IMG/VR virus record: IMGVR_UViG_3300028833_000401
Source of the DNA: a virus
Length of the DNA: 31,691 bases
Reading direction: 5' to 3' (one strand)
Under the pieces are notes generated by a model, which did not search any database, was not told the DNA's origin, and saw only the letters and a program-made list of their open reading frames with translations. How positions within the stretch are numbered: position 1 is the stretch's first letter; each line of letters begins with the position of its first letter. The position numbers and the translations under genes are program-made. Of this stretch, positions 13,159 to 16,514 are shown in pieces.

Positions 13159-14016
13159 ATGGCAGTTCAATCTTATGCTTCTGAATTTTCTAAACTATTT
13201 AAACAGGGTAACTGTTCAGTCCAAGGTAAGGACTGGACAGCTCCGAGATATTTTGACGGTATGGAAAATGACTGTTATAAGGCAGAAGCAGCATTACTTT
13301 CTGAACTTTCTTCTGAAGCATATAATATGTTTGGATTTGAAGTTCAATATTATTTAAAAAACATTGATACTAAAAAAGACAGATTATATGGTGAAGACCC
13401 ATTGGCAAATGTAGAGCGTAGATTCTTGTTAAAAATGTATACTGAATCTATACCGACAATGCAGAGACAATATGAACTTCAGGGTATGATTTTTCCAGAA
13501 ATTATAACATGTCAATGCACTGTTCAACATTTCTATGAAGCATCTCAGCTTTCATATCCAGATATGAAGGATATTTACGAAGCTGAGGTTCCAAAGATTG
13601 GCGATATTGTTTATATCGAATATTCAGACACTTATTATGAAGTAGTTAATGTAAAGGAATTTGCTGAACAGACAACATTCTTGTCTACTCCAATTACTTA
13701 TACATTCAAGTTACGTGTCTGGCACAACAATCATGAAAACGTTGATGAACTCAATGTTAATAATGATCCAATGGATGAATTTAGAAAGTATGCAGAACTT
13801 GCAGAAACATTTAAACTTGATACTTCTACTTCTACAACAGACAAAACAAGTGAAGTCGCGCCTGAATCTGATATGTTATCTACAAATACAGATGCAATGA
13901 CTGATACTGATATTAACAATGAACCAAAAGATAATGTTCCGACTAATGTCATATATAAGTCTGAAGAAATTAAAGAAGAGAATCCACAATACTATGATCC
14001 TTTTGAGGGTTGGTAA
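13159..14016 (+). CDS. gp14: Neck / head-tail adaptor protein (T4 gp14-like)
   Basis: FGFEVQYY...DRLYGED...KMY...PKIGDIVY...YEVVNV matches the gp14-family pattern. Confidence 0.85.
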   Translation: MAVQSYASEFSKLFKQGNCSVQGKDWTAPRYFDGMENDCYKAEAALLSELSSEAYNMFGFEVQYYLKNIDTKKDRLYGEDPLANVERRFLLKMYTESIPTMQRQYELQGMIFPEIITCQCTVQHFYEASQLSYPDMKDIYEAEVPKIGDIVYIEYSDTYYEVVNVKEFAEQTTFLSTPITYTFKLRVWHNNHENVDELNVNNDPMDEFRKYAELAETFKLDTSTSTTDKTSEVAPESDMLSTNTDAMTDTDINNEPKDNVPTNVIYKSEEIKEENPQYYDPFEGW

Positions 14017-14019
14017 TCT

Positions 14020-16074
14020 ATGGGACTTGTAAATATTTTTAATATACAAAGGCTTAGACCACATATCAATTACAGATTCAGTGCTGAAATCTGGCCTAAT
14101 GCTGCTGAAGGTGATAAAATTGAAGAGTATACTAAATTCCAGTATACTATTAAGAAGATTACTCAACCAGTATTTAAACTAGATACCGAAAATAAAAAGG
14201 TTTACGGTAATACTGCATATGTTGTTCCTATCTTTAAGTATGGTGAAACTTCATTAGAAATTACTTTTGAAGAAACAGATAAGATGGAAGTCTTTAAACA
14301 ATTATGCACTTGGATGGGACCGAATCTCTATAAAGGATATTTACCTCCACTTATCAATATACGTGTCACGCAATTTAATGAATCAATGGTAGACGTTGTT
14401 GATAAAAAGGTTTATATATGTCGTTTAAAAGAACATGGAATGCCATCTTTCAATAATAACGGATTTGGTAGTCCAATCGAAATTACTGCTACATTTAATG
14501 TTGTTTACATAATGGATGAACCATTAACATTAGAACATTATAATGATAATGATGAAATAAGTAGATATACTACTGAATATACATTGCCCGATAATAAAGC
14601 ACTTAATGATGCTCTTAAAGAAACACTCAAAAATCATAAAAATGCTGATTCTGCTAATAAAGTATTGAAAGCTGAACGTGCATTGGCTGATAAGAGAATC
14701 GATGAATTGGCTAATGAAAACTTAGATTTAAATGAATATATGATGGAACGTCTTGCTGTTGCTTATGCAAAAAGTATGGAAAATGCTTCTCCTGAACAAC
14801 TTGCTCTTATGCAGCAAATTGCTGAAAGTAAAGGTGGAAGCACAATGGCAAATCAGACCGAAACTCTATTAAATTTCTTGAATGCTAATATTCGTGCTGA
14901 ACATGGTGAGAATACAAAAAAATCTGTTGCTGGTGCTGATTATGAATTAATTGAATTTAATGCCGCAAATGGTGCGGATATTTATGAAACTGAAGCTGTA
15001 GAAAGATTCTTAAAATTTACTAATGCTGATGAAGAAACAGTTGCAGAAATTAGTGACATTTTATATAAGATGAATGAAAATACTGCTAGAATTAATGAAT
15101 TGAATAAACCAGTATCTGATGCTGATTCTCTTGCTAAAGAATTACAGAAAGATTATGCAACTGAAGATGATTTGAATAGAGCAATTAAAGAAGCTGTTGG
15201 TATGGAAGTTGAAGCTCCTAAGAAAGAAACTACACCTACACGTAGTAGTTATAATGGTAATGACCCATTAATAGGTGCTATTGCTGCTTCTTATGAAAAA
15301 GAAGTTACTGCTAGGGAAGGTGAACGTGGACACGTATTCTTCGATATGCTTGATACTGGTGGTGCAAGAGGTACAATTAACCTAGGTTCTGGTTCTTCTG
15401 AAGGTGCTAGAGGATATAGTGACCTTGGTGAAATTACTGTTAACATCAATGGTGTTACAATGCAGTTCAAAGATTCTGCTTCACTTAACAAGGCTGTTCA
15501 AGAAGCATTTGGTGGTAAAGAAGCAATTGTTGACGTATTTTTAGCAAATGGTGGTGGTAAAGGTTATACTACTAAAGAAGAACGTAAGAAAGCAAACTTG
15601 AAAGGTGCTAAAGAAGGTCTTAATCAATTACTTGAAGCATCAGGTGGTGTTATTACGGACGACTATGGTAATAAATCTGTAGTTAAGCTTGATAAAGGTA
15701 AGGGTATTTATCTAAATATTCAGCTTGATGAAAATGCTTCTCAGAGAGTTAGTGATAAGAATATGTTAGTAGATACCGCTGGTTGGTCTGAAAGCACTAG
15801 ACAAACAGTTATTAATAGCAATCAAGGCTCTGCTAATAAGACAGTTCAAGGTATGTTACACTTCGAACATGCTTATAGTGGATTTAAGGCTGTTTGGAAC
15901 CAGTTTAATAAGGATGAAAGTAATGTTCAGATGCTTAATGAAGATATTAAACGTGGAACATTCAGTCAAGCTACATTGGATGAATTATCCAGAAGTGTTG
16001 ATAAGTTAAAAGTTAAAGATAAAACTAAAGCAAGCTTTAAACGTGTTATTAGGGAATATGGTTATCTAAGCTAA
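14020..16074 (+). CDS. Tail-tube-fold (gp19/gp48/gp54-like) N-domain fused to a helical region and a T4-lysozyme-like motif
   Basis: The first ~165 aa (YRFSAEI...TIKKITQP...LEITFEET...W...IRVTQF...ITATF) are tube-fold-like. REGERGHVFFD...TINLG at 15316-15387 resembles the GH24 catalytic motif. Confidence 0.6.
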   Translation: MGLVNIFNIQRLRPHINYRFSAEIWPNAAEGDKIEEYTKFQYTIKKITQPVFKLDTENKKVYGNTAYVVPIFKYGETSLEITFEETDKMEVFKQLCTWMGPNLYKGYLPPLINIRVTQFNESMVDVVDKKVYICRLKEHGMPSFNNNGFGSPIEITATFNVVYIMDEPLTLEHYNDNDEISRYTTEYTLPDNKALNDALKETLKNHKNADSANKVLKAERALADKRIDELANENLDLNEYMMERLAVAYAKSMENASPEQLALMQQIAESKGGSTMANQTETLLNFLNANIRAEHGENTKKSVAGADYELIEFNAANGADIYETEAVERFLKFTNADEETVAEISDILYKMNENTARINELNKPVSDADSLAKELQKDYATEDDLNRAIKEAVGMEVEAPKKETTPTRSSYNGNDPLIGAIAASYEKEVTAREGERGHVFFDMLDTGGARGTINLGSGSSEGARGYSDLGEITVNINGVTMQFKDSASLNKAVQEAFGGKEAIVDVFLANGGGKGYTTKEERKKANLKGAKEGLNQLLEASGGVITDDYGNKSVVKLDKGKGIYLNIQLDENASQRVSDKNMLVDTAGWSESTRQTVINSNQGSANKTVQGMLHFEHAYSGFKAVWNQFNKDESNVQMLNEDIKRGTFSQATLDELSRSVDKLKVKDKTKASFKRVIREYGYLS

Positions 16075-16101
16075 AAAATCAGACTTTTTGCTATTCTTTA
16101 G

Positions 16102-16132
16102 TTTACAAAATTTTACAATCAATCTATATTTG
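16102..16132 (+). promoter_or_regulatory. Host-RNAP-type (early/middle) promoter
   Basis: TTTACA (16102-16107), 17-nt spacer, TATATT (16125-16130). CTATATTT(G/A) recurs at 24024 and 25957. Confidence 0.6.
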
Positions 16133-16136
16133 ATTC

Positions 16137-16428
16137 CATAAATTCCAAAGTCTAATTCCTCGGAGCGAAGACCAATCCAATGGAACTGTCGGTAGAGGGT
16201 TAGCCATTAAAGATACTAGAACTGTGTCTTTCATTTATATGATCCGGTATTAACGGATAATGGAATGTTCATCGAAATACTGTATAGCAAGCAGTATATT
16301 TAGCCGCCATTGGTAGGGCGAGATATAGCCGGAGTACAGGATGACCGACCCGTAAGCTCGTTTGTAAATCCACTTAGTCGAAGACAGATGTACTAGTCTT
16401 TTGCCTATTTCCTTAAATAGGCTTATTG
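16137..16428 (+). ncRNA. Candidate structured non-coding RNA (~290 nt), family unassigned
   Basis: ORF-free, hand-counted 41% GC over 16141-16420, at least six predicted helices, promoter upstream and an 8-bp closing hairpin (16403-16422) followed by TTATTGT. Boundaries are estimates. Confidence 0.55.
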
Positions 16429-16474
16429 TCTCTACAGATATTTTGAACGTGTGTATAGATAGATATTTAAAATT

Positions 16475-16482
16475 TATAAATA
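16475..16482 (+). promoter_or_regulatory. T4-type late promoter TATAAATA
   Basis: 32 nt upstream of the ATG at 16515 (AAGGTG SD). Confidence 0.7.
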
Positions 16483-16514
16483 TATAAAATTGTTTAAATA
16501 TTAAAGGTGAAAAT

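Follow-up and report, generated by a model that had tools for sequence, protein, structure and literature searches.

Structured RNAs comparable with the element

Like many other RNA motifs catalogued from bacteria and phages, cow-rumen-2 has no known carrier or function. It reportedly goes back to the 224-motif survey of Weinberg et al. 2017. Rfam holds it as RF02947, with the type 'Gene; sRNA' and 106 positions. The Rfam 15 paper (PMC11701678) includes it in the table of families improved by R-scape, with two more covarying pairs, and gives no function. A literature search found no published account of a larger cow-rumen-2 unit, of giant T4-like carriers or of four copies per genome.

ROOL and GOLLD are other structured phage RNAs of poorly understood function. 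They share with the RNA described here the origin in rumen and environmental metagenomes, the presence of pseudoknots and the scarcity of clues from gene context. ROOL RNAs have a mean length of 581 nt (Weinberg et al. 2017, PMC5737381). The present RNA is about half that size and has no sequence or model match to ROOL or GOLLD.

A further group of comparable systems consists of the T4 ori(uvsY) and ori(34) transcripts and ColE1 RNA II, which are likewise promoter-driven non-coding transcripts beside A+T-rich DNA and resemble the present RNA in having several copies per genome. The function of ColE1 RNA II depends on its fold. We know of no invariant pseudoknot loop in the T4 origin transcripts or in RNA II. 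The CsrB and RsmZ sponges carry repeated CAGGAUG-like GGA motifs in their hairpin loops.

Locus, carrier phage and relatives

The window, that is, the whole stretch of DNA analysed, comprises 31,691 nucleotides of the IMG/VR virus record IMGVR_UViG_3300028833_000401. A first-pass annotation of the sequence had singled out one long gap free of ORFs and of unusually high G+C content. The gap at 16075-16514 is indeed the longest spacer of the window, with 440 bp compared to 162 bp for the runner-up, and the 41% G+C counted by hand over 16141-16420 was reproduced (0.411, compared to 0.05-0.26 in the 14 other spacers and 0.315 in the whole window). It is flanked by the ORFs at 14020-16074 and 16515-17306, and only four ORFs, of 28-36 aa, overlap it. 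A+T-rich spacers are the norm across the phage genome, as judged from the spacers of the window. A search of 50,697 deposited phage genomes gave no similar DNA.

The RNA is carried by a giant T4-like phage from the ruminant gut. A neck-protein-like gene (13159-14016) precedes the ORF upstream of the RNA (14020-16074), which encodes 684 aa and had no match in Pfam or PHROG. This ORF loses its upstream position in relatives at ~70% identity or less, in which the RNA and the downstream gene are kept. The downstream gene (16515-17306) is T4_baseplate-like, with a match to Pfam PF12322. A RegA-type translational repressor (17795-18196; Pfam Translat_reg, 1.6e-22; PHROG 242) is encoded 1.3 kb 3' of the RNA, with the baseplate-like gene and a 141-aa ORF in between; it showed no link to the RNA.

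The baseplate-like gene has its own T4-type late promoter, TATAAATA (16475-16482, +), which lies outside the RNA and belongs to a separate transcription unit. This box has 18 matches in the window compared to 8.1 expected, a number reached by none of 100 shuffles, and the matches mostly stand just 5' of gene starts (e.g. 13147, 16475, 17356, 18202, 21308 and 26922). In a complete relative, the box lies within 60 nt upstream of 73 of the 314 long ORFs.

The nearest virus record (G002) is a complete genome of 415,750 bp with terminal repeats and four copies of the RNA, at 51, 113, 273 and 359 kb. A second complete phage (G003; 424,163 bp) also has four copies, and in fragmentary records there are one or two. 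Scanning viral and metagenome contigs by pattern yielded ~130 loci, almost all of them in ruminant gut samples, which reduce to 52 copies that are less than 97% identical to one another. One locus of the viral scan (L016) is spurious. The scan of genome contigs was loose, so that most of its 120 matches are due to chance; the real ones are contigs from gut MAGs, including goat-gut ones. Among the real matches, a single one has a non-gut label, namely an activated-sludge record (L214, UPTA01000225), whose copy is near-identical to the rumen type of L015 and L035.

The nearest 'genome' (G001) is a goat-gut MAG under the label Methanobrevibacter; its 191-kb contig consists of this phage. Two goat-gut MAGs that were deposited under the name Methanobrevibacter sp. 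(RGIG2231 and RGIG2411) hold 173-191-kb contigs of the phage, and the MAG contigs with the phage or its RNA comprise G001 C83 (191,090 bp) and C24, as well as L073, L082, L142, L150, L159 and L167. The bins that contain the RNA are named Methanobrevibacter, Bacilli, Succinivibrionaceae and Coprovivens, which contradict one another, and these names probably reflect mis-binning of low-G+C phage DNA.

Family identity of the core

The Rfam search placed RF02947, cow-rumen-2, at 16271-16376 (+) with 105.4 bits (cut-off 66, E 3e-21). The match spans model positions 1-106 of 106 and is not truncated. It is the sole Rfam match in the whole window, with next-best E-values of 0.19 to 8.5, far below thresholds. 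By this match, the core of the RNA is a canonical member of an already catalogued family, and the novelty that the first-pass annotation had proposed for it does not stand.

The features by which cow-rumen-2 is known are present. The P1 hairpin (16277-83 with 16291-97) has a loop of the UAGCAAG type and is followed by the single-stranded linker AGCCGCCA, and a long interrupted helix encloses the invariant GUAGCNGG...ACAGGAUGACC...CCNUAAG. The related copies come almost all from ruminant gut metagenomes, with a goat-gut MAG contig and rumen contigs from IMG/VR and JGI as the nearest records. Unlike the catalogued motif, the window RNA has in addition a conserved promoter, a 115-nt 5' domain, two 3' hairpins and a tail.

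Other families were examined as well. ARAGORN found no tRNA or tmRNA, and neither these nor RNase P RNA, SRP RNA or 6S RNA had an Rfam match at the gathering threshold or at E <= 10, so the absence of tRNA, tmRNA, RNase P and SRP hallmarks noted earlier was borne out. A tRNA-like RNA was rejected since no model matched. The resemblance to a group I J8/7-P7 element that had also been noted found no backing, as no group I model matches at E <= 10 in 15900-16700. A group I intron or its remnant was rejected on this ground and because the element sits between two complete genes with its own promoter. A likeness to RNase P P4 seen by eye (5' AAAGUC, 3' GGCUUAU) was likewise discarded, given that C16152 belongs to a covarying helix and equivalents of P1-P3 are absent.

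Promoter

The promoter consists of TTTACA (16102-07), a 17-nt spacer and TATATT (16125-30), which is extended to TATATTTG (to 16132); it lies on the + strand and agrees with 10 of 12 consensus positions. It had been proposed in the first-pass annotation in the same form. The promoter at 16102-16132 is the only match in the window to TTTAC-N18-22-TANNTTTG, and alignments show that it is kept upstream of orthologous and paralogous copies of the RNA. Promoters of this class drive two of the four copies in G002 and two of the four in G003. The predicted start of the RNA is at about 16137-16140.

The pattern GTTTAC-N18-22-TAnnTTTG has further exact matches in G002 (163196, 168857 and 188205) and in G003 (111913, 121009, 161872, 244353 and 276099), most of which end in TACTATATTTG or TTATATTTG. 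These sites seem to form a small class of promoters that are strong and probably early. A Bacteroidota host was also considered, on account of the TAnnTTTG shape of the -10 element, but found no support: in a complete relative, a Shine-Dalgarno-like motif is found at 61% of ORFs compared to 15% of control positions.

Fold of the 5' domain and overall support

Helices were written out, and their pairs were counted on alignment A2, which contains 33 copies; a smaller alignment, A1, contains 23. In both alignments, conservation starts at the promoter and not at 16271, and it runs through the 5' domain, the core and the two 3' hairpins. The Rfam model thus covers only the middle third of a conserved unit of ~325 nt. 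The full model has 66 pairs, for which 89.9% of cells are paired in A2, compared to 74.3% after shuffling and 35-42% when partners are slid by 1-3 columns. At 44 pairs both sides have changed, and the covariation score is 0.443 compared to 0.07-0.11 for slid partners. The folding energy of the single sequence is no better than that of shuffles (z -0.57 on the + strand and -0.74 on the - strand), so that the support for the fold comes from comparison with relatives and not from energy.

The 5' domain (16147-16263, +) is a covarying region of ~115 nt outside the Rfam model. All of its helices lie on the + strand. It starts with helix Ha (16152-61 with 16195-203), in which 89.8% of cells are paired and both sides have changed at 6 of 8 pairs. 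Helix Hb0 (16166-68 with 16189-91) and hairpin Hb (16170-73 with 16182-86; loop AAYYCAAU) follow inside it; Hb has 90.9% of cells paired and changes on both sides at 2 of 6 pairs. A three-way junction is formed by Hc (16204-08 with 16259-63; 80.8% paired, 2 of 5 changed on both sides), Hd (16209-16 with 16224-31; 74.6%, 8 of 8) and He (16242-46 with 16254-58; 95.2%, 3 of 5). As a control, partners were slid by 1-3 columns, which left only 35-44% of cells paired.

The helices drawn in the first-pass annotation fared unequally. Five of the eight, namely CTAA-TCCTC/GAGGGTTAG, CCATT/AATGG, AAAGATAC/GTGTCTTT, ATCCG/CGGAT and ATACTGT/GCAGTAT, show compensatory changes among the 33 copies. The other three (CGCC/GGCG, AGTACA/TGTACT and CGAC..TAAG/CTTA..GTCG) are not kept in the alignments of relatives.

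Pseudoknot and invariant loop of the core

In the core, both sides have changed at all seven pairs of hairpin Hf (16277-83 with 16291-97, +). The core linker UAGCCGCCA follows it on the + strand, and within the 33-copy alignment the stretch AGCCGCCA at 16302-09 is invariant. The long helix Hg (16311-22 with 16357-72, +) has 97% of cells paired in its inner part, with changes on both sides at 7 of 7 pairs. Helix Hh (16330-34 with 16349-52, +) varies at both ends: C16330-G16352 is CG in 17 copies and UA in 16, and G16334-C16349 is GC in 28 and AU in 5. A sarcin-ricin-like reading of AGUAC..GACC was rejected, as G16334 forms this covarying Watson-Crick pair with C16349.

An all-against-all covariation analysis of the 52 non-redundant copies detected a pseudoknot, PK1, outside the nested model. 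Its 5' strand UCG (16272-16274, +) pairs with CGA at 16346-16348 through U16272-A16348, C16273-G16347 and G16274-C16346. Positions 16272/16348 are UA in 39 copies, GC in 7 and AU in 6, and positions 16273/16347 are CG in 38, UA in 11 and UG in 3, so that a standard pair is present in 52 of 52 copies in both cases. Five combinations of strands occur (UCG/CGA, GUG/CAC, AUG/CAU, UUG/CAA and GCG/CGC). On alignment A2, PK1 is 100% paired, with both sides changed at two of its three pairs. PK1 competes with the tip stem of the Rfam model, which consists of GG/CC plus a U-G pair; the GG/CC stem has no covariation support because it never varies. The window RNA thus departs from the catalogued model at this point, where the bases immediately 5' of P1 take part in a covarying pseudoknot that competes with the tip stem.

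PK1 and helix Hh close the 11-nt loop UACAGGAUGAC (16335-45, +), which is directly followed by the 3' strand of PK1 (16346-48). The loop is invariant in 33 of 33 aligned copies. In the non-redundant set of 52 it is invariant with a single exception, a divergent copy of G003 at 338 kb. The loop together with the PK1 3' strand (16335-48) is likely to be the functional site.

The invariant loop contains CAGGAUG, which we take to be the consensus of the CsrB repeat. Unlike CsrB and RsmZ, the window RNA has this motif as a single invariant copy, and its other repeated motif, the twin motif ACAGAU described below, lacks GGA. A CsrA sponge was rejected, given only one invariant CAGGAUG and the absence of PF02599 from the near-complete relatives G002, G003 and G005; the same search was positive in the controls E. 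coli, B. subtilis and T. maritima.

A second pseudoknot is suggested by AGCC (16302-05) and GGCU (16420-23), whose positions are invariant apart from one lineage. This lineage (L031, L200 and L220) shows a matching double change to AGCCC/GGGCU. This candidate pairing is suggestive, and in the window it competes with the 3' hairpin S2.

3' hairpins, tail and twin motif

Hairpin S1 (16381-16400, +) pairs AAGAC (16381-85) with GUCUU (16396-400) and bears the first copy of the twin motif, ACAGAU, at 16384-89. In per-sequence folds, a hairpin whose sequence differs between lineages occupies the S1 position in 20 of the 21 type-I copies (mean z -2.2 compared to shuffles). Hairpin S2 (16403-16422, +) is formed by GCCUAUUU and AAAUAGGC around the loop CCUU and holds the conserved UUCCU-N-AUAGGCU. 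Between 88 and 90% of its cells are paired in A2, with two pairs changed on both sides, and its UAGGCU is nearly invariant among the 52 copies.

The first-pass annotation had closed the RNA at S2 and the following TTATTGT, and this is the only terminator-like site in 15900-16700. It would be a weak terminator, with an 8-bp stem that contains three G-C pairs and is followed by UUAUUGU. Other lineages keep AUAGGCU without the U-run after it, and some display AUAGGCU in a loop. The 3' end of the RNA is uncertain for these two reasons, the weakness of the site and the missing U-run in other lineages. Beyond S2, a tail (16423-16463, +) consisting of UUAUUGUCUCU, the second twin motif ACAGAU (16434-39), UUUUGAACGUG (16441-51) and UGUAUAGAUAGAU is conserved in paralogues of the G002 lineage. 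The tail word TTTTDAACGTG has five sites in the 415-kb genome of G002, and four of the five are at its four RNA copies, which indicates that the tail belongs to the element and is not a general signal of the phage.

The twin motif is a short repeat at fixed positions before and after S2. It reads ACAGAU in the window and ACGGAAUAU, GCAGGU, GCAGAA or CCAGAA in other lineages; in the second tail type it is replaced by A-rich words such as AGCAAAAGA. In any single sequence the repeat is weak (6-9 nt; p<0.05 in 13 of 52 copies), and it is credible because its position is fixed and the two sites change together from one lineage to the next. A search for a complementary 'anti-twin' gave none.

Such a repeat invites the view that the RNA processes itself. 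It would then be a new ribozyme, with the invariant pseudoknot loop as the active site and the twin motif as the processing sites. The pseudoknotted core is very dense in invariant nucleotides, the RNA is multi-copy, and the two motif copies that flank a conserved hairpin vary together from lineage to lineage. However, known ribozyme families have no match in it even at E <= 10, and a cleavage site is not identifiable from the sequence. We regard a catalytic RNA as quite improbable.

A stand-alone gene or a leader

The comparisons show that a structured RNA of ~290-330 nt has a stand-alone gene of its own at ~16138-16463 (+); we infer the transcription and both ends of this RNA from the sequence. 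The proposal of a structured non-coding RNA with its own promoter among late virion genes was thereby upheld, through the covariation of its helices and the conservation of its promoter.

A different view is that the RNA is a cis-acting leader, similar to a riboswitch or an attenuator. On sensing a ligand or protein, it would govern whether transcription from its promoter reads through into the next gene, and alternative pairings that involve the 3' hairpins and the repeated motif would bring this about. The next gene is in fact co-oriented in the window and at all four G002 copies, where it begins 92-150 nt beyond the conserved element. In L008, L183 and the G003 copy at 165 kb, the first twin motif forms the 5' strand of S1, which the second could replace, and the pseudoknot with its invariant loop bears a resemblance, though a resemblance only, to small ligand pockets. 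Across the 52 copies, however, the RNA is not always upstream of and co-oriented with a gene. The next gene is convergent with it in L034, L186, L255, L193 and L211, and the RNA is antisense to both neighbours in L175, L177, L190 and L212.

This antisense placement in some lineages argues for a stand-alone gene and against a leader. The stand-alone gene is further supported by the promoter, which is conserved and the only one of its class in the window, and by the late promoter of the baseplate-like gene at 16475-82, which lies between the RNA and the start codon of that gene. In addition, the four G002 copies precede unrelated genes, that is, a baseplate gene with regA, SLT with Rnl1, unknown genes and a DHH phosphoesterase. 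No neighbour gene is constant across the RNA copies, and the downstream genes have no common functional theme. A leader function is accordingly very unlikely in our judgement.

Copies, paralogues and replication origins

Three of the four copies are positional orthologues between G002 and G003, and the fourth represents a class with a different 5' domain. From these two observations, the four copies are old paralogues, each of which has been retained, and not a recently spreading element. Even where the protein identity of the baseplate-like gene has fallen to 53%, the RNA is still found upstream of this gene, and the loops of the RNA are invariant throughout. In the entire 415-kb genome of G002, the Rfam matches are tRNAs and the four cow-rumen-2 RNAs only. 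ARAGORN found 47 tRNA genes in this genome, gathered in a few clusters (292-313 kb and 369-375 kb) that lie at a large distance from all four copies of the RNA. The multi-copy state and the position away from the tRNA clusters are further differences from ROOL and GOLLD.

Quite different 5' domains are joined to the same core in L007/L046 (G002 359 kb), L006, L174, L181, L183, L193, L198 and L211, as well as in L175, L177, L190 and L212. The family is thus modular. The G003 orthologue of the 359-kb copy of G002 scores 71.6 bits, and its loop differs from ACAGGAUGACC.

The distribution of the copies has also to be read with replication in mind. If the RNA were an origin-priming transcript of the T4 ori(uvsY)/ori(34) or ColE1 RNA II type, each copy would be a replication origin, at which the folded RNA forms a persistent hybrid with the A+T-rich DNA downstream and primes the leading strand. 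Its layout from promoter to transcript to A+T-rich DNA would suit this role. So would the four copies dispersed in the 415-kb genome, a number like that of T4 origins, the occurrence of the tail motif almost exclusively at the copies and the position of two copies at divergent strand switches. On the other hand, the cumulative GC skew of G002 turns near 160 and 345 kb and not at the copies, and it tracks gene orientation, although this point is weak because T4-type replication need not leave a skew. Besides the missing skew signal, the copies differ from T4 origins in that no MotA-type middle promoter was recognised. A+T-rich spacers are standard throughout the genome, and an invariant 11-nt loop with a covarying pseudoknot across paralogues and lineages exceeds the known needs of a primer. 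An origin transcript is unlikely on this balance.

Proposed function

On the best reading, the element is an RNA that is made early and acts in trans, and its fixed, knotted core would bind a conserved protein, for which it serves as a scaffold or decoy. This reading may hold or fail about equally. It was reached by excluding the other readings and not through positive evidence. The RNA has a sigma-70-like promoter and the surrounding virion genes have TATAAATA late promoters, so that, judging by promoter type alone, the host polymerase would make the RNA early. The RNA would act in trans. The invariant loop UACAGGAUGAC and the invariant single strands (AGCCGCCA, GUAGC and UUCCU..AUAGGCU) may form a fixed three-dimensional site. 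This site would bind a conserved phage or host protein, for which the RNA would be a scaffold or decoy. The motif around S2, which differs between lineages, may serve for recognition specific to each lineage, be it by signalling processing or by offering a site for pairing.

A bolder form of the proposal is offered tentatively and is doubtful as it stands. Phage RNAs of ~300 nt would constitute a new class, with the 106-nt cow-rumen-2 as their knotted active centre, and giant T4-like gut phages would encode them in four anciently diverged and individually conserved genes. The RNA would act either as a ribozyme or as a scaffold or high-affinity decoy that binds a protein of the host or the phage, for example to counter a host defence, and the lineage-specific repeated motif would be a specificity signal.

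Significance

The window and its relatives assign cow-rumen-2 to giant T4-like phages of the ruminant gut. The catalogued cow-rumen-2 model is the centre of a larger, pseudoknotted and promoter-driven RNA. Four diverged copies at fixed loci in complete phages imply that selection acts on each copy. For experimenters, these results define the boundaries, supply a structure model and point to the loop at 16335-45 as a candidate active site.
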